DNA from: Alphaproteobacteria bacterium
GTDB lineage: Bacteria > Pseudomonadota > Alphaproteobacteria > UBA828
Assembly: GCA_965221125.1 (NCBI GenBank)
Contig: CBDCRW010000004.1
Span: forward strand, 800,001-864,000
Direction: 5' to 3'
Length of the DNA stretch: 64,000 bases
Shown: positions 29,890 through 64,000 of the stretch, in pieces
Numbering within the stretch: position 1 is the stretch's first letter
Layout of the letters: the number at the start of each line of letters is the position of its first letter
The notes under the pieces: model-generated
Told to the model about the DNA's origin: nothing
What the model saw: the letters and a program-made list of their open reading frames with translations, nothing else
Databases searched by the model: none
Program-made: the position numbers and the translations under genes

Positions 29890-29973
29890 GACGCGGCGAA
29901 ATTGTCGTTTGCGCGTCCGATGTCATGAGAAGGGCACAGTCGGCCTGCCGCCAATGCGCGACGGGTTACGGGG

Positions 29974-30819
29974 TCAGCGGCTGCGCAGGCGCTCGGAGCG
30001 CCGGCGTAGGAGCTCGATGGTGATGAGGAGGCAGATGGAGACCGCGATCAGCAACGTTGCGACCGCGAGGATCGTGGGGTTGATCTGCTCGCGCAGGCCC
30101 GAGAACATCTGGCGGGGAATGGTGCGCTGGTCCGGCCCGGCGAGGAAGAGCACCAGCACCACCTCGTCGAACGAGGTGACGAAAGCGAAGAGCGCCCCCG
30201 AGATGACGCCTGGCCGGATCAGCGGCAGGACAACCCGGAAGAAGGTGCGGATCGGCCCGGTGCCGAGGCTGATCCCCGCGTTGTAGAGCCCGCGGTCGAA
30301 GCCCGTGAGCGTGGCGGTGACGGTGACGATGACGAAGGGGATGCCGAGCGCCGCGTGGGCGATGATGAGGCCGGGGAAGGTGCCGACGAGCCCGAAGCGC
30401 GTGTAGAAGAAGAACATGCCCGCGGCGATGATGATGAGCGGCACGATCATCGGCGAGAGCAGCAGGGCGGTGATGGTGCGCCTGAACGGCATGTCCGAAC
30501 TGGCGAGGCCGACGGCGGCGACGGTGCCGAGAATCGTCGCCACGATGGTCGCGAAGATGCCGACGATGAAGCTGTTCTGGATCGCCAGCATCCAGTTGGG
30601 CGTCTCCAGGATCGTGACGTACCAGCGCAGCGAATAGGCGCTCGCTTCGAAGGCCAGCATCTCCTCGGTAAAGGTGAAGTAGGGCTGGCTGTTGAAGGAG
30701 AGCGGAATGATGACGAGGATCGGCAGGATCAGAAAGAACAGCACGGCGCCGGCGCAGCCGCGCAGCGCATAGACCCCCAGCTTGTTCCAGATCGTGAAGT
30801 ATTCGGGGAAGCTCGCCAC
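29974..30819 (-). CDS. Polyamine-type ABC transporter permease (PotC-like)
   Basis: IPLSFN, SLRWY, SPMIVP, GALFAFVTSFDEV, QRTIPRQMFSGLRE. Confidence 0.93.
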   Translation of the reverse strand: MASFPEYFTIWNKLGVYALRGCAGAVLFFLILPILVIIPLSFNSQPYFTFTEEMLAFEASAYSLRWYVTILETPNWMLAIQNSFIVGIFATIVATILGTVAAVGLASSDMPFRRTITALLLSPMIVPLIIIAAGMFFFYTRFGLVGTFPGLIIAHAALGIPFVIVTVTATLTGFDRGLYNAGISLGTGPIRTFFRVVLPLIRPGVISGALFAFVTSFDEVVLVLFLAGPDQRTIPRQMFSGLREQINPTILAVATLLIAVSICLLITIELLRRRSERLRSR

Positions 30820-30822
30820 GGC

Positions 30823-32097
30823 TCAGCCGAGCTTGATGTTCTTGGCCCCGACGAGGCGGTCGTAGAGCCAGTAAAGGACGATGATCACGAAGAGGAGGAG
30901 CGTGCCCAGCGCGGCCGCGAGTTCCCAGTTGTTCGACTGCTGCATGTGGAAGGCGATGATGTTCGAGATCATCTGCCCGTCGGTCCCGCCCACCAGCGCG
31001 GGCGTGATGTAGTAGCCGACCGAAATGATGAAGACGAGCAACGCGCCCGCCGATAGCCCCGGAAGAGTCATCGGGAAATAGACCCGGATGAAGGCGGCGA
31101 TGGGCCCGGAACCCAGCGAGAGAGCGGCGCGCATGTAGCTCCGGTCAATGCCCTTCATGACGCTGTAAAGCGGCAGCACCATGAAGGGCAACAAGATGTG
31201 CGTCATCGCCACGATGGTGGCGAACTCCGTGTACATCATCTCGAACGGCTCGTCGGTCAGCCCGATCCCCATGAGGAAGGAATTGACCACGCCGTTCGTC
31301 TGAAGAAGGGCGATCCACGACGTCGTTCTGACCAGGAGCGACGTCCAGAACGGCAGCAGCACGAAGATCAGAAGGATGCCGGCAGCCTTCGCCGGCAGGC
31401 CCGCAATCACGTAGGCGAGGGGATAGCCCAGGACGAGCGTGAGCACGGTGATGATCAGCGCGATCTTCAGCGTCTTGAGATAGAGCTGGATATAGATGCG
31501 TGCTGACTCGCGCTGCTGGATGCCGCCCGACGGGCCTCGTTCGAGGTCGAGCGCCGTCAGGAAGTTCCGTTCGGAGTAGCTGCGGCCGACCTCGCGCACG
31601 GTGGTCCAGAGTGCGGGGTCCGCCCACTTCTTGTTCGCCGCGAGCAGAAGGGCGGCGCCGTCGGCCGCAAGCTCCTCGTCCGCGACGCGGCGCATCTTGC
31701 GGGCGGTCGACTTCACCACGCTTGACGTGCCCGGCAGGCCGCGGTTGAGCTCTTCGGCGAGCTTGCCCGAGGTGCGCTCGTTGGCGAGACGCTTGAGGTC
31801 GACCGCCATGGAGGTCAGCACAGCCTCGCCCGGCACGCCCTCGCCGCTCCAGCCCTGCAGGACCTCCAGCGTGCCGGGGATCAGCTCCACCACGGTCGGA
31901 TTGTGCACGCTGCGGTGCAGCATGGTCGCGACCGGGGCGAAGAAGGCGAAGGCCACAAAGGCCAGCAACGGCAGCACCAGCGCCAGCGCGACCAGGCGCC
32001 GGCGGTTCAGCGCACGGGAGGCGACCCGCGCTTCCTCCCGGGTCAGCCCGCGCGGAGCGTGTGCGGCCGCAGACTGAAGCGCGGTCTTAGCCCGCAT
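30823..32097 (-). CDS. Polyamine-type ABC transporter permease (PotB-like); current start lies inside the MITE terminal repeat
   Basis: LPFWTSLLVRT, HILLPFMVLPLYSVM, RAALSLG, GYYITPALVGG. Confidence 0.92.
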   Translation of the reverse strand: MRAKTALQSAAAHAPRGLTREEARVASRALNRRRLVALALVLPLLAFVAFAFFAPVATMLHRSVHNPTVVELIPGTLEVLQGWSGEGVPGEAVLTSMAVDLKRLANERTSGKLAEELNRGLPGTSSVVKSTARKMRRVADEELAADGAALLLAANKKWADPALWTTVREVGRSYSERNFLTALDLERGPSGGIQQRESARIYIQLYLKTLKIALIITVLTLVLGYPLAYVIAGLPAKAAGILLIFVLLPFWTSLLVRTTSWIALLQTNGVVNSFLMGIGLTDEPFEMMYTEFATIVAMTHILLPFMVLPLYSVMKGIDRSYMRAALSLGSGPIAAFIRVYFPMTLPGLSAGALLVFIISVGYYITPALVGGTDGQMISNIIAFHMQQSNNWELAAALGTLLLFVIIVLYWLYDRLVGAKNIKLG

Positions 32098-32381
32098 TTC
32101 TCACCAAGGCCATGGTCTGCGCGGCGCTGTCCGGCTGACAGGCAAGGAGAGGCGCGCAGCGCGTCGCGCGGTACGCGCGCCTCCGGCGCGATGTGGGACA
32201 TCGGGCAAGCGCATCGACGCAGCGTGTCGGCCGGACAGCGCCGCCCTTCGGGTCGCGCCTAGGCGCCCGCCCGCGGCGTCGCGAGCCTCCACCGTATTCC
32301 CTGATACGCTTTTCGGCCCGCTCCTGGCGGATCGAACGCCTGGACGCGACGCAGGCCGTGGCCTTGGTGAGAAATGCGGGC
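32090..32381. mobile_element. MITE (292 bp, about 31-bp terminal inverted repeats, TA duplication, no transposase)
   Basis: Left GCCCGCATTTCTCACCAAGGCCATGGTCTGCG and right CGCAGGCCGTGGCCTTGGTGAGAAATGCGGGC; TA at 32088-32089 and 32382-32383; internal hairpin GCGGCGCTGTCCGGCTGACA/TGTCGGCCGGACAGCGCCGC. Confidence 0.88.
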
Positions 32382-32450
32382 TAGTCATCGACGTTGGAAG
32401 GCGAGCGACGGCGCCGGGCTTGCAGCCGGCGCCGCCATCCCGCGGTCAGG

Positions 32451-33506
32451 CTACTGCAGTAGCCACTCGTTGAACTTCTCGCCAAGGGATTCGCCGAAAT
32501 CGGCCCAGAAGATGCCGTCGGCCTTCAGCCCGATGTCGATATGCGCCGTCGGCAGATCGTTCTGTACCGCCGGATCCACCAAAGCCGCCGCGGATCGGCG
32601 CGTCGGCCCGTAGGCCACATCCTGCATGCCGGACAGCGGCACCGTGCCGGTCGCGAATTTCACGAAGTCCATCGCCTGCTCCATGTTCGGCGAGCCCTTC
32701 ACCACCGACCACACGTCGAGGTCGAAGATGTGGCTGTCCCAGACCATGACGAAGGGACGGTCATGGTCCTGGATGTCCTTGAAGATGCGGCCGTTGGCCG
32801 ACTGCACCAGGACCGCCCCGCCGTCGTTCAGCAGCTGGGGCGCCTGCGACCATGACTCGTACCAGACGAGGTCGTCCCGGATGGTGTCGAGCTTGGCGAA
32901 GGCCCGCGCCTGGCCCTCGTCCGTCGCCAGCGTCTCGTACACCTGGTCGCGCGGCACGCCGTCGGCGATGAGCGCCCACTCGAGGTTGACCTGCGGCCGC
33001 TTCCGCATGGCCCGCTTGCCGGGGAAGGTCTCGGTATCGAAGAAGTCCTCGATCTTGCTGGGCGTGCCGCCCTGGATCGTCTCGGTGTTGTAGGCGTAGA
33101 TGATGGTCCAGAAGATCACGCCGACGCCGCACTCGTTGGCGAGCGCCTCCTCGAAGAAGTCCTCCTCGGCCGGCGTGCCGTCGTCGCCGGGCGGCAGGAT
33201 ATCGCGGGGGATGATCTCCAGCAGGCCTTCGGAGCAGGCCCTCTCCAGGTCGATCACCTCGATATCGACGACATCCCACTGGATGTTGCCGGCTTCCACC
33301 TGCGCCTTGATCTCGGCGATGCCGCCGGAATAGTCCTCGAACAGCACATTGTTGCCGCTGGCCGCGATGTAGGGGTCGACCATGTGCTCCTTCTGCGCGG
33401 CACCGTAAGCGCCGCCGAAGGACACGGCGGTGAGATCCCGCGCCGCCGCAGGGGTAGCAGCGACGGCCAGGATTGCCGCTGCGCTCAACAGGGTCTTGAG
33501 TCTCAT
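32451..33506 (-). CDS. Polyamine-type ABC transporter substrate-binding protein (PotD-like)
   Basis: Signal peptide MRLKTLLSAAAILAVAATPAAA; VSFGGAY, IQWDVVD, FPGKRAMRK, LEWALIADGV; start at ATG 33506. Confidence 0.92.
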   Translation of the reverse strand: MRLKTLLSAAAILAVAATPAAARDLTAVSFGGAYGAAQKEHMVDPYIAASGNNVLFEDYSGGIAEIKAQVEAGNIQWDVVDIEVIDLERACSEGLLEIIPRDILPPGDDGTPAEEDFFEEALANECGVGVIFWTIIYAYNTETIQGGTPSKIEDFFDTETFPGKRAMRKRPQVNLEWALIADGVPRDQVYETLATDEGQARAFAKLDTIRDDLVWYESWSQAPQLLNDGGAVLVQSANGRIFKDIQDHDRPFVMVWDSHIFDLDVWSVVKGSPNMEQAMDFVKFATGTVPLSGMQDVAYGPTRRSAAALVDPAVQNDLPTAHIDIGLKADGIFWADFGESLGEKFNEWLLQ

Positions 33507-33568
33507 CGTCTTTCTCCCTTTCGTTGATAACGGTTGATCTTCGGTCGCCATAAAAGGCTCATCCGCGC

Positions 33569-34744
33569 TCACATCGTGCGGAAGGCAAAGCAGTCGCTTC
33601 GTTGCCACTGAAGCCGTGCAAACTCTCCCTCCTGAAACTTCGGTGCCGTCAAATCGTTCAAGAGTTTCACGGTTATTTCCGTCCCGTCCTCCAGCTCGAA
33701 GTAGTAGCGAATGAAGTCGCCGACGTAGTGACGCACGATGAAGCGCGCCGTGATTTCGTTGTCGTGGCTGCTTCCGTTCGTCTCGAGAAATATTTTCTCG
33801 GGCCGTACCGATACGATGCAGGGGGCACCGATATCCTTGGCGTCGGCCAACGCGGTCACGACGTGCTGATCGCCCGAAATGGAGACCCGCACCGTGCGGT
33901 CGTCCACGGCGGCAACGGTGCCGGGCACCATGTTGTTCTCGCCGATGAAGTCGGCGACGAAGGCGTTTCCGGGCCGTTCGTAGAGCTCGTCGGGCGTGGC
34001 GCACTGCTGGACGACGCCGTCGTTGAACACGGCGATCCGATCCGACATCGTGAGCGCCTCGGTCTGGTCGTGCGTCACGTAGATGACGGTGAAGCCGAGG
34101 CGCTGATGCAGCCGGGTGATCTCGAACTGCATCTGCTCGCGCAGCTTCTTGTCCAGCGCGCCCAGCGGCTCGTCCATCAGGACGAGCGACGGCTCGAAGA
34201 TCAGCGCGCGGGCGAGCGCCACGCGCTGGCGCTGGCCGCCGGAAAGCTGGGACGGATGGCGGTTGCCGAAATCGCCGAGCTCCACCAGGGACAGGTATTC
34301 CTCGACCCGCTCCTTGATGACGCTGCGGCCGACCTTCCTGGCCTTGAGGGGGTAGGCGAGGTTCTCGGCTACCGTCATGTGGGGAAACAGCGCGTAGTTC
34401 TGGAAGACGATGCCGATGTTGCGCTTGTTGGGCGCGGTGCGGGTGATGGGGGCGCCGCCGATCAGGATGTCGCCGCCGGTGACGCTCTCGAAGCCGGCCA
34501 GCAGCATGAGCACCGTCGTCTTGCCCGAGCCGGACGGCCCCAGCAGGGTGATGAACTCCCCCTTGGCGACGTCGAGATCGAAGCCCTTCACGACCAGCGT
34601 CCTGCGGTCGTAGCTCTTCTTCACGTCGATGAAGCGGAGAAACCCTTCCGGCCCTGGGGGTTGAGCCGCTTGGTCGTCTCTTTCGCCGCCCGGAGATGGC
34701 CTGCCCGCGCTCTCTTGCCGAACACCCGCTTCAGTGCGTTCCAT
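33569..34744 (-). CDS. Polyamine-type ABC transporter ATP-binding protein (PotA-like)
   Basis: GPSGSGKTT, FQNYALFPH, LSGGQRQR, LMDEPLGALD, TOBE C-terminus; start uncertain. Confidence 0.93.
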   Translation of the reverse strand: MERTEAGVRQESAGRPSPGGERDDQAAQPPGPEGFLRFIDVKKSYDRRTLVVKGFDLDVAKGEFITLLGPSGSGKTTVLMLLAGFESVTGGDILIGGAPITRTAPNKRNIGIVFQNYALFPHMTVAENLAYPLKARKVGRSVIKERVEEYLSLVELGDFGNRHPSQLSGGQRQRVALARALIFEPSLVLMDEPLGALDKKLREQMQFEITRLHQRLGFTVIYVTHDQTEALTMSDRIAVFNDGVVQQCATPDELYERPGNAFVADFIGENNMVPGTVAAVDDRTVRVSISGDQHVVTALADAKDIGAPCIVSVRPEKIFLETNGSSHDNEITARFIVRHYVGDFIRYYFELEDGTEITVKLLNDLTAPKFQEGEFARLQWQRSDCFAFRTM

Positions 34745-35206
34745 GGCAGGGACCGGCAAGAGGGTTTATCCCGGACACTGGGTGGGTTACTTGGGCGAGT
34801 CTCCAATGACGTGTTGGGGTACCGGCTCCGCTCGCCACCGCGCCTGCGCAACGGGAGCACCGCGCACCGATTGCCGCGGGTCTCTTGACGTGCCCCGCCC
34901 TGACGTCCCGACTCACTCTTCGCAATTCCGTCGGCGGACTGCCATGCTGCCCATGCCGCGATTCCCCGCGCCGTTCAGCATGTACCCTCCCCCGGACCAG
35001 CACTCACCGCAGCGCGTGCGCGCCGGCCGTTGCGGTCGACACTTCAGTGGTTCGCAAGTATACAAGCTGTTATGCGAATTGTATGATCAAAGCGGGGTCA
35101 GATATGCGAATATAGGGAAACTTTCTCCCGCTTCCGTCTATCCCCACGCTGCCCGCGCAGGGCGCCAAACAAGAGCCAGGGACCAGCCGATGGCCGCACC
35201 GCCCTG

Positions 35207-48433: not shown

Positions 48434-48613
48434 GGCTTCCCCCGATTTCCATGATGTTGCGGAGGCGGGCGGCGGGCGGCCGCGCCGCGGGCCGGTTTTC
48501 GCAGCGTTCGCGGGAGCGGTCAAGCGCGCCCGCGCAGACCATGACCCTGGCGCGACATCCGGGCTAGAGTGACGGCGGAACAAGGCGGTGGCTTACCGAC
48601 AGGGAGGGAGCGA

Positions 48614-52196: not shown

Positions 52197-52275
52197 TCCT
52201 TGCCACGCACTCCGGGCCGAAAACCCCCCTCCCCCAAAGGCGGAGGGGGGATGCTGTCGTGGACGGCGGCGCCTA

Positions 52276-52323
52276 CTCCCTCTCCTCCCCTCGGGGGAGG
52301 AGAGGGCCGGGGAGAGGTGGGGG
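52276..52323 (+). repeat. REP-like CCCTCTCC...GGAGAGGG palindrome, copy 2
   Basis: CTCCCTCTCCTCCCCTCGGGGGAGGAGAGGGCCGGGGAGAGGTGGGGG; a related hairpin CCCCCTCC..GGAGGGGG lies at 52224-52250. Confidence 0.75.
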
Positions 52324-61068: not shown

Positions 61069-61188
61069 ATCCCTCAAGCGCATCGCGCACCTGCGCGCGT
61101 ATCCGCGCGACGCGCTCGCTCCGCTCGCTTGGCTTCGCGCTACGCGCATCGTGCGCTTGCGTACGTGGCCGTGCGACGCGCAGTCGCG
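61069..61188 (+). repeat. GC-rich modular repeat, copy 1
   Basis: Shares ATCCCTCA, GCGCTCGCTCCGCTCG, TCGTGCGCT, ACGTGGCCGTGCGACGC and TTCGCGCT-CGCGCA blocks with 63919-64000. Confidence 0.65.
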
Positions 61189-61250
61189 CCGTCCGGGCGG
61201 CCAGTAGTGGCCGCCCGGTAACGCAACTCATCAACGACACGAGGAATTTC

Positions 61251-61794: not shown

Positions 61795-61954
61795 GGAGCG
61801 CGTCCGTCAAAGACGGACGCGCGACAGGCCGCGAATGCGGCGCGCCCTCGCAGGCGTTGGCCGGTCGCGCCGGCAGGCGCGCGGAAGCGAAGACCGGCCA
61901 ACTGCCGTGAGCGATAAAGACTCGGAGTGCGTCCGACCTTGACGGGCGCTCTCA
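61795..61954 (+). repeat. Palindromic intergenic mosaic repeat (RIME/Bru-RS-like), copy 3
   Basis: GGAGCGCGTCCGTC..GACGGACGCGC, GCCGCGAATGCGGCG, GCCGTGAGCGATAAAG, GAGTGCGTCCG..CGGGCGCTCTC. Confidence 0.8.
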
Positions 61955-63848: not shown

Positions 63849-63918
63849 TGGTGAGTTATTCGGGCCGGCCCCGAACCGCCGCCCCACCTCCCCCTGTCCC
63901 CCTCCCGACTCTTTTCTT

Positions 63919-64000
63919 ATCCCTCAGTCGCCGGGCGCTCGCTCCGCTCGATCGTGCGCTCCGCGCACGTGGCCGTGCGACGCTTCGCGCTCCGCGCACG
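63919..64000 (+). repeat. GC-rich modular repeat, copy 2 (runs off the window end)
   Basis: Same blocks as 61069-61188, in a different order. Confidence 0.65.

Follow-up and report, generated by a model that had tools for sequence, protein, structure and literature searches.

MITE insertions in coding sequence are usually read as gene-killing or, in Rickettsia, as in-frame protein additions. Among known elements, those closest to the one described here are the IS630/Tc1-mariner-type MITEs, namely Correia/NEMIS of Neisseria and RUP of pneumococcus, which are short and non-coding, occur in many copies, and carry terminal inverted repeats and a TA duplication; they also yield long stem-loop transcripts and are co-transcribed with neighboring genes (PMC2229807). 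In the accessible text of these reports, the effects ascribed to them are promoters, IHF binding, RNA processing, and ORF fusion, and not the replacement of a start codon by a phase-biased repeat ATG. The Rickettsia palindromic elements (RPEs) are likewise mobile palindromes residing in conserved, still functional protein genes (PMC10969869, PMC2229807), where, according to the available parts of these papers, they form a translated in-frame segment of the host protein. The Neisseria REP2 and Borrelia IR repeats are described, in the sections at hand, as lying upstream of genes, with a promoter and without terminal inverted repeats. In Coxiella, functional genes overlap at their 3' ends with the ends of QMITE1 and QMITE2; with ubiB, the overlap is 2 bp long and is listed as STOP. 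The main text of that paper places the QMITE insertion at the 3' end in all affected functional genes and does not contain the term 'start codon' (PMC5896051). For MITEAba12 of Acinetobacter, the accessible text comments on the consensus (data not shown there) and reports no cases of start-codon replacement. MITEAba12 is of the IS5 type and makes a 9-bp duplication. In the openly accessible main texts searched, we found no description of a repeat-encoded start-codon replacement combined with a read-through upstream ORF.

Here we analyzed a window of 64,000 nucleotides in which an element of this kind occupies the start of a permease gene. The element resembles Correia, NEMIS, and RUP in the features described for them, and an Rfam scan of positions 31500–33000, with E values up to 1, returned zero families. 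In contrast to the RPEs, translation entering this MITE would stop at the far repeat and then restart, so that the element peptide would be separate and the host protein would lose only its first residues. Unlike REP2 and the Borrelia IR repeats, the element has terminal repeats together with a duplicated TA, gave no promoter-like match, and lies within codons 2–30 behind a read-through ORF.

The element within the first permease gene

The element and the permease are read on the minus strand throughout. Sequence analysis revealed a TA-flanked MITE of 292 bp (32381–32090) inside codons 2–3 of the first permease gene in an ABC-transporter operon (Table 1). The assignment as a MITE follows from its shortness, a sole long ORF (95 aa) without a Pfam match, terminal inverted repeats, a target-site duplication with empty sites, and many dispersed copies. 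A plasmid collection searched with the element gave one match, which spans 68 nt and is unrelated. As the original prediction had it, deleting the element plus one TA restores ATG ACT AAG ACC GCG CTT CAG, and the net insertion of 294 nt, or 98 codons, is in frame. The native ATG indeed opens 95 codons that end in a TGA, followed by GAA and the in-frame ATG (32097–32095) of the 424-aa permease, and an SD-like GGTGA (32105–32101) overlaps this stop. Both ends of the element carry the outward ATG and form TAG from TA+G, the terminal repeat reading outward ...GGTGA GAA ATG CGG GC/TA. Beyond the repeat ATG, the next in-frame ATG, GTG, or TTG is 40 codons downstream, within the first transmembrane helix.

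Table 1. Features of the element and of the surrounding operon (window positions)
Feature	Position	Strand	Remark
MITE body	32090..32381		292 bp; longer variant of a mostly 265–266-bp family
TA target-site duplication, native-ATG side	32382..32383		TA + first G of the element = TAG
TA target-site duplication, permease side	32088..32089		TA+G = TAG here too
Terminal inverted repeat arm adjoining the native start codon	32345..32383		39 nt, 90% complementary
Terminal inverted repeat arm with TGA, SD-like GGTGA, and candidate restart ATG (minus-strand reading)	32088..32126		39 nt, 90% complementary
Native permease start codon ATG	32386..32388	-	Followed by ACT A; same start in the empty paralog, G015, L013, L047, and L044
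Insertion-created upstream ORF	32101..32388	-	95 codons; opens at the native ATG, crosses the entire element, ends at TGA 32103–32101
GGTGA	32101..32105	-	Complementary to UCACC of the 16S rRNA 3' tail; last 3 bases are the TGA of the upstream ORF
Repeat-borne ATG, in frame with the permease	32095..32097	-	Only canonical start before the first transmembrane helix
Permease 1, PotB-like, BPD_transp_1	30823..32097	-	424 aa from the repeat ATG; intact ORF
Permease 2, BPD_transp_1	29974..30819	-	Pfam domain match
Solute-binding protein gene, SBP_bac_8	32451..33425	-	Stop precedes the native permease ATG by 62 nt; start coordinate from our own gene finder
ABC ATPase gene, ABC_tran + TOBE_2	33569..34759	-	First gene of the operon

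Both permease ORFs of the window are intact, with no frameshift or stop over 704 codons, and the operon keeps all four genes. A paralogous operon on another contig (C7) of the same genome (G000) contains both permease genes, which are 95.6%–97% identical to the window copy, with the native start intact. This second operon is incomplete, its ATPase gene and the N-terminal half of its binding-protein gene having been lost to a repeated insertion-sequence fragment (4 places). The branch leading to the window copy carries 6 non-synonymous versus 33 synonymous changes (dN/dS about 0.065), a signal that may pre-date the insertion; the intact-start paralog could have relaxed selection on the window copy. 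The sole RNA run found matched 0.08 of the sampled words, and its contigs, at only 90%–95% identity, come from relatives and do not bear on this locus. The window permease gene probably stays expressed despite the insertion, as do several essential genes of related bacteria.

The site without the element reads ATGACCGAAACC in the C7 paralog (around 184392–184397) and ATGACCGAGACC (MTETALQ) in the sister species G015. At the position of the TA...TA of the filled site, both carry CG, and the empty-site sequence that had been predicted, TCTTAGTCAT, was not found; two extra substitutions must thus be assumed. No exact pre-insertion allele was found among the paralog and the relatives examined. That the insertion struck codons 2–3 of a true gene is borne out by these empty sites and by the orthologs L013, L047, and L044, which share the MT... 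start and do not begin downstream of the insertion site. A sponge-metagenome contig (X5) matching 32355–33000 with 1 difference was not counted as an independent filled allele, as it covers 29 nt of the element, below the 31-nt bridging threshold.

Empty sites were found for three insertions of this genome; besides the permease insertion, these are two lineage-specific start-proximal ones, the first in a gene resembling hisZ and the second in a gene for an ABC ATPase. At these two genes every aligned relative has an empty site (8/8 and 6/6, respectively, from 11 relatives' loci each). Between the empty sites and the reconstructed site there are 2–5 nt of difference. The idea that flanking bases travel with the element was rejected as unnecessary, because the codons to the left of the element leave the protein after insertion; moreover, N-terminal codons vary among relatives anyway.

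The element family and its insertion sites

At least 121 copies at 103 distinct loci were located in 21 genomes of the genus; 11 full-length copies are in the genome of the window, and the element is present in at least 18 of the 20 others. The copies analyzed are the best-scoring subset, about 160 further matches lying outside each of two sets, and may favor well-conserved copies; so may the setting aside of 11 of the 131 sequences (120 relatives' loci and 11 own copies) that were without the repeat pair. Genes were called with our own codon-usage finder rather than taken from curated annotation. The 16-nt repeat end matches 24–80 times in each genome, and its reversed control 0 times; with the complementary arms and the dispersed copies, this goes beyond chance. 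Copy length is 265–266 bp in 92 of the 121 copies and 292–293 bp in 10; TA flanks both sides in 62 and one side in 53, and GGTGAG is found at 216 of the 242 family ends, the terminal repeats being conserved throughout the 121 copies. The target conforms to YTAR in 112 of the 121 copies (CTAG 45, CTAA 28, TTAG 25, and TTAA 14). IS630 prefers a CTAG-like target with TA duplication. The element is a non-autonomous transposon (MITE) behaving like IS630/Tc1-type elements. An IS5-type 4-bp duplication was ruled out, the outer Y and R differing between the two sides in most copies and the G/C being constant bases of the element.

The transposase profiles PF13358 and PF01359 found nothing in the genome of the window, which has no DDE_3; elsewhere in the genus, DDE_3 genes are present in 16 of 20 genomes. 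A MITE-like end (at most 6 mismatches) was found at none of 20 DDE_3 loci, out of more than 120. Two candidate parents were discarded. Repeat ends 1018 bp apart in G019 proved to belong to a 40-bp double-repeat mini-element and a solo end, and the stretch separating these two contains no coding gene. The ends of an abundant 1453-bp insertion sequence, found next to a MITE remnant, are unrelated.

Insertion positions were scored after in-silico removal of the element. In 33 of the 121 copies (27 loci), the insertion site is the TA of a stop codon, and the first G of the repeat rebuilds TAG. Since YTAR contains TAA or TAG by definition, insertions at stop codons are expected; this class is the same as the 3'-end overlaps of QMITE1 and QMITE2. 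The enrichment of copies at gene boundaries, proposed beforehand as a check, was found.

A second class comprises insertions within the first 30 codons, of which 21 of 23 (18 loci) have the TA in codon phase 3/1, and no other phase would bring the repeat ATG into the reading frame of the gene. Compared with plain TA availability, this phase was observed in 18 of 20 cases with 0.30 expected (p = 4e-8). Compared with YTAR availability, it was observed in 18 of 19 with 0.69 expected; under this stricter null the bias reaches only p = 0.008, and, YTAR being impossible in phase 1 within an ORF, only two phases compete. Insertions fall in phase 3 of codons 2–10 at 14 of 103 loci, whereas among the remaining YTAR sites of those loci 4 of 263 have this position (odds ratio 10, p = 1e-5). 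Relative to intergenic YTAR sites, this 10-fold excess is more than tolerance alone can give.

The repeat codon is ATG more often at the used ends of the start-proximal copies (20 of 21) than at the other ends (121 of 221, p = 1.3e-4) or at the ends opposite to the used ones (14 of 21, p = 0.045). The upstream ORFs created by these insertions span 84–114 codons, and in 20 of 21 the stop lies within 16 nt of the repeat ATG (+8 in 12, -15 in 6, -6 in 1, and +16 in 1 of the 21 copies). Furthermore, 17 of the 21 copies lie the same way round, in the orientation that offers an open entry frame in 110 of the 121 family copies versus 55 of the 121 for the other; without orthologous duplicates the orientation bias is 15:3 (p = 0.0075). 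In all 21, the next possible start codon lies 13–62 codons past the repeat ATG.

The genes behind the repeat ATG include tpiA, ispE, and aroA, each adjoining an element. Given the family cut-off, tpiA is the sole copy in G004 and G014, ispE in G004, G014, and G019, and aroA in G019. Judged from sequence, these single-copy genes of complete genomes are predicted to depend on the repeat ATG. The view of the ends as portable stop/restart cassettes, first raised for the permease locus, is thus supported family-wide by the stop-codon TA, the phase, the ATG retention, and these three genes.

Proposed read-through and restart, and its alternatives

The explanation that best fits these observations, to which we assign a probability of about 0.7, is that the insertion is read through, terminated, and re-initiated at the repeat ATG. 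Initially, ribosomes would begin at the native ATG as before, using the native ribosome-binding site. Translation of the 95-codon ORF through the element would melt the long stem of the two terminal repeats, which, if unmelted, would bury the second SD-like site and the ATG. Afterwards, translation would terminate at the TGA inside GGTGA and re-initiate 6 nt downstream at the repeat ATG, yielding a permease in which MRA replaces the native first two residues MT. For the family at large, an insertion would be harmless on a TAA or TAG stop codon, where the first G of the repeat rebuilds TAG, and at an NNT/ANN junction in early codons, where the repeat ATG is in frame; copies at these two kinds of site would be the ones that persist.

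As in known coupled pairs, the stop lies near the downstream start (-6 at the window locus), and the initiation site is predicted to be masked by a structure that upstream translation would open. The predicted RNA fold has an energy of -208.6 kcal/mol (z = -10.3), and in the minimum-energy fold the repeat stem covers both GGUGA and AUG. GGUGA is complementary to the 16S tail GGATCACCTCCTTTCT at G000:C4:567593, and GGTGA is a weak, atypical SD, found upstream of 68 of 3172 predicted genes versus 1025 for GGAG. An in-frame fusion of the RPE type is not what we see, for the TGA at 32103–32101 ends the entering ORF, as the far repeat does in 20 of 21 copies. Of the translational coupling originally proposed, the end of the upstream ORF, the orientation bias, and the predicted stem over SD and AUG all stand in its favor; the re-initiation itself, and its dependence on translation of the upstream ORF, we infer from the sequence and the folding model.

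The repeat ATG might instead be used without coupling, on a transcript from an outward promoter inside the element or on an RNase III-processed mRNA, the far repeat then being single-stranded and its SD-like site and ATG directly accessible. Correia elements of Neisseria are reported, in the accessible portions of the papers, to have outward promoters and to undergo RNase III processing (PMC3184786, PMC2229807), and the very stable stem would be an RNase III substrate. However, no sigma-70-like site was found within 31950–32600, in or around the element, and thus no REP2-like internal promoter, although this is a weak test for the organism; moreover, uncoupled use predicts neither the excess of copies oriented with the open entry frame nor upstream ORFs that end so close to the repeat ATG (at most 16 nt away in 20 of 21 copies). 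We consider it unlikely. A little less likely again is a recent inactivation of the window permease, whose in-frame ATG would be idle while the C7 paralog covers the function. This paralog, with its intact native start in the same assembly, has a similar contig depth in the likely source run, and the absence of the insertion from all relatives examined indicates that the insertion is young. Against inactivation, the C7 operon lacks the ATPase gene and half of the binding-protein gene, whereas the window copy has four genes free of frameshift or stop, and the identical insertions in single-copy tpiA, ispE, and aroA argue that the arrangement is compatible with function.

We give least credence to a distribution shaped by transposase insertion preference only, for YTAR and perhaps for translation-start regions, in which ATG and TAG would have no functional meaning. 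Such a preference accounts for the hits on stop codons, fits the competition between only two ORF phases, and is hinted at by the excess at codons 2–10 over intergenic sites, which may reflect a targeting or retention bias. Yet it leaves unexplained the better ATG retention at used ends, the phase ratio of 18:1 against 0.69 expected, and the orientation bias, as well as the survival of single-copy essential genes that have no alternative start for 13–62 codons.

Under read-through and restart, the element's own ends appear to neutralize the insertion, either by a rebuilt stop codon or by a start codon behind a read-through ORF. The element could then colonize the most constrained part of a compact genome, and automatic annotation would mis-call genes as disrupted or N-terminally truncated, or add spurious 'hypothetical proteins' of 85–115 aa. 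About 270 nt of structured, translated RNA between the native initiation signal and the protein would offer a regulatory handle and a potential synthetic-biology part; as originally suggested, the element may adjust the amount of permease relative to the binding protein. We further suggest, tentatively and with less than even confidence, that the terminal repeats form a complete translational splice of stop, SD-like site, and start, and that start-proximal copies become locked in by turning into the initiation region, since any imprecise loss of the copy would take with it the sole start codon left to the gene. If true, such lock-in would explain the roughly 10-fold excess at codons 2–10 in the compatible phase over intergenic sites, as well as the presence of the element in single-copy tpiA, ispE, and aroA of several species. 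It would mean that a mobile element persists as part of the initiation regions of essential genes, acting as a natural portable translational-coupling cassette. The family is a testable case of selfish DNA and host selection jointly shaping where repeats survive. Loci seen in more than one genome number 3 of 18 in the start-proximal class, 8 of 27 in the stop-codon class, and 7 of 47 among intergenic insertions.

Element at the permease start

The window carries a minus-strand ABC-transporter operon ordered ATPase, solute-binding protein, element, permease 1 and permease 2. The anatomy proposed in the original prediction, namely TA, element, TGA, GAA, restart ATG and GGTGA, is present in every item on the minus strand.

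Features of the operon and of the element (window coordinates)
Feature	Position	Strand	Remark
ATPase	33569-34759	-	ABC_tran + TOBE_2
Solute-binding protein	32451 to about 33425	-	SBP_bac_8
Permease 1	30823..32097	-	BPD_transp_1
Permease 2	29974-30819	-	operon member 3' of permease 1
Native ATG	32388-32386	-	gene's original start, then ACT A
TA, native-ATG side	32383-32382	-	directly before the element in minus-strand reading
MITE, 292 bp	32381-32090	- (reading direction)	bounded by inverted repeats of 39 nt that are 90% complementary
Second TA	32089-32088	-	then AG ACC GCG CTT CAG
Upstream ORF, 95 codons from native ATG	32101..32388	-	terminates at TGA 32103-32101
GGTGA	32105-32101	-	shares bases with the TGA stop
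Repeat ATG	32097-32095	-	GAA between TGA and ATG; opens 424-aa ORF 30823..32097

Contig C7 of the same assembly carries the two permease genes again, 95.6-97% identical and without the element; the empty site there reads ATGACCGAAACCGCG, and that of the sister species G015 reads ATGACCGAGACCGCG. The orthologs L013 (95%), L047 and L044 (both 75%) have an MT... start at the same position, so that no ortholog begins downstream of it. From this comparison of sequences, the element is a true insertion into the real gene start of permease 1. The exact empty allele that had been predicted (ACTAAG, MTKTALQ) was not found: the C7 and G015 sites show CG instead of the TA...TA of the filled site, and thus two transitions must have made the TA target in the lineage of this genome. 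The likely source run yields contigs with the filled junction, matched over 160 nt with 0 differences at a depth of 25.5, and with the empty paralog joint at a depth of 18.8.

The C7 paralog could make the window permease copy dispensable. Since their divergence, both copies have had a dN/dS of about 0.065 (6 N + 33 S changes on the window branch, 7 N + 39 S on the C7 branch); the insertion may fall anywhere along the window branch. The paralogous stretch, C7:182275-185659 (window 29969-34448), contains both permease genes together with the 3' half of the gene for the binding protein, at 95.6-97% identity. The ATPase gene and the other half of the binding-protein gene are displaced there by a segment of about 555 bp, probably an insertion-sequence fragment, which is found three more times in the genome with 98.6-99.5% identity; the window operon is complete.

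A MITE family at gene boundaries

Judged by sequence, the element belongs to a MITE family of the genus. The family counts 11 full-length copies in this genome, where repeat-like ends number about 55. Of the 20 other genomes of the genus, 18 match the element query and two complete ones (G016 and G017) lack it. Outside the genus, weak partial matches occur in two other genera of the same taxonomic family, and five genomes of a neighbouring family gave no match. Five genomes searched with the 16-nt repeat end (≤1 mismatch) contain 24-80 occurrences each, and the reversed control gives 0. An Rfam scan of the element region matched no family, and no transposase with ends matching the MITE was found in this genome or in the relatives' loci examined.

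The census combined 120 relatives' loci (full-length, among the matches listed) with the 11 copies of this genome; both repeat ends were found in 120 of these 131 sequences, giving 121 elements from the best-scoring subset of matches, and 11 sequences were dropped. Among the matches listed, 92 elements measure 265-266 bp and 10 measure 292-293 bp, the class of the window copy. TA stands at both flanks in 62, at one in 53 and at neither in 6, and the target is YTAR in 112 (CTAG 45, CTAA 28, TTAG 25, TTAA 14). Other sizes also occur: repeat-end spacings imply variants of about 170-350 bp in G014, and a 40-bp mini-element at L225:1588-1627 (G019:C1:3078087-3078126) consists solely of a pair of terminal repeats set back to back, with TA on each side. 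In the window, a 37-nt repeat-like end (48530-48566, 84%) and a 43-nt internal piece (61093-61134, 86%) are possible decayed copies.

To place the sites relative to genes, each element plus one TA was removed in silico, and genes were called by our own codon-usage finder trained on this genome. Among the matches listed, 51 of the 121 elements are intergenic, 33 lie at a stop-codon TA, 23 within the first 30 codons (start-proximal) and 14 elsewhere in genes. The TA of 21 of the 23 start-proximal copies is in phase 3|1 (NNT|ANN), the sole phase putting the repeat ATG CGG GCT Axx in frame. Grouping orthologous insertions left 103 loci, with 18 start-proximal in phase 3 and one each in phases 2 and 1, 27 at stop codons and 47 intergenic; the following tests assume independent loci. 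Of the 104 YTAR sites at codons 2-30 of this genome's predicted genes, 72 (0.69) are in phase 3, compared with 18/19 observed (p = 0.008); with the availability of plain TA (0.30) as the null, the observed 18/20 gives p = 4e-8.

The original prediction that copies concentrate at gene boundaries was borne out against 263 other YTAR sites within the same loci. Codons 2-10 in phase 3 hold 14/103 insertions versus 4/263 sites (odds ratio 10, p = 1e-5; 10.6 against intergenic YTAR sites), and stop codons 27/103 versus 40/263 (odds ratio 2, p = 0.017), while the remaining gene bodies are depleted (13/103 versus 77/263). Tolerance alone cannot yield the gene-start excess, which leaves either targeted insertion or preferential keeping of copies. 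We favour retention, because imprecise loss of a copy would ruin the gene's start or stop. Loci shared by more than one genome (3/18 start-proximal, 8/27 stop-codon, 7/47 intergenic) are only suggestive on this point.

An orthologous element at ispE (L110 in G019, L141 in G004, L163 in G014) falls in the upstream gene's stop codon in one genome and is start-proximal in two; a single copy may thus serve both neighbours at once. Among the 3667 genes called in this genome, stops are TGA in 2214, TAG in 1142 and TAA in 311, a TAG share of 31% that is seemingly high for 69% G+C.

Start codons in the terminal repeat

Several observations suggest that the repeat ATG serves as a start codon. The ends facing a start-proximal gene carry ATG in 20 of 21 cases and TTG in one. 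ATG is found in 121 of the other 221 ends, 55 of which have no start codon (p = 1.3e-4), and, within the same 21 elements, at 14 of the ends facing away from the gene (p = 0.045). In all 21 copies the next in-frame ATG, GTG or TTG lies 13-62 codons downstream of the repeat ATG; for the window permease it is 40 codons on, within the first transmembrane helix. Behind the repeat ATG, NCBIfam models matched above curated cut-offs for TpiA, IspE, AroA, HpnD, allantoate amidohydrolase and a PotA-family ATPase, and the best matches below cut-off were HisZ (first 170 residues scanned), HdaA, LpxI and several ABC permeases. No second match to tpiA exists in G004 or G014, nor to ispE in G004, G014 or G019, and in G019 aroA is alone above cut-off; each of these genes adjoins the element. 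In TpiA, the next start codon encodes the M within the conserved NWKMNG motif, and a start there would delete the catalytic lysine. This genome also has lineage-specific insertions of the same kind in two further genes, one hisZ-like and the other encoding an ABC ATPase, with empty sites in 8/8 and 6/6 aligned relatives, respectively (11 relatives' loci fetched each).

An ORF of 84-114 codons, opened by the native start, crosses the entire element in 20 of the 21 start-proximal copies. Relative to the repeat ATG, it stops at +8 (far TA+R) in 12 copies, at +16 in one, and at a far-repeat TGA (-15 or -6) in seven. Reinitiation in bacteria can take place a few nucleotides to either side of a stop. 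The entry frame is stop-free in 110/121 copies in one orientation and in 55/121 in the other. Start-proximal copies take the open orientation in 17 of 21 cases (deduplicated 15:3, p = 0.0075), and stop-codon copies are without such bias (19:14). The transcript of the window copy has a predicted fold of -208.6 kcal/mol (z = -10.3), in which the two repeats pair over GGUGA and AUG and the native AUG lies 4 nt before the stem. Such a stem would bar direct initiation at the repeat AUG unless opened by a ribosome arriving from the native AUG. The 16S tail of this genome contains UCACC, the complement of GGUGA. From sequence and predicted fold, we infer that translation of the upstream ORF is probably coupled to that of the gene behind the repeat ATG.

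Known elements and other repeats

Passages of PMC10969869, PMC3184786 and PMC2229807 describe in-frame fusion of MITE ORFs to host genes for RPE, ERIC, the 107-bp Correia element and YPAL. A passage on Coxiella reports element ends overlapping gene 3' ends, one providing a stop (PMC5896051), and the stop-codon half of the present family is, to that extent, already known in kind. Terminal start codons were remarked on as a possibility in a passage on MITEAba12. Our search of article full texts found no account of a terminal repeat that, downstream of a read-through ORF, systematically takes the place of native start codons. The start-codon half, which shows biases in phase, orientation and position and occurs in single-copy essential genes, appears to be new.

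Other repeats of this genome include an insertion sequence of 1453 bp with a single 398-aa ORF (C6:357612-359064; at least 14 copies, 99.9-100% identity), whose ends are unrelated to the MITE and whose C6 copy has a solo MITE end about 95 nt away. Short repeats at window 52225-52323, 61112-61202, 61849-61918 and 63883-63997 recur elsewhere in the genome at 86-96% and are likewise unrelated to the MITE. The beginning of C5 (1-6607) is 100% identical to C7:82394-89000 over 6.6 kb, apparently through an overlap in the assembly that may add to the estimated contamination of 5.83%.
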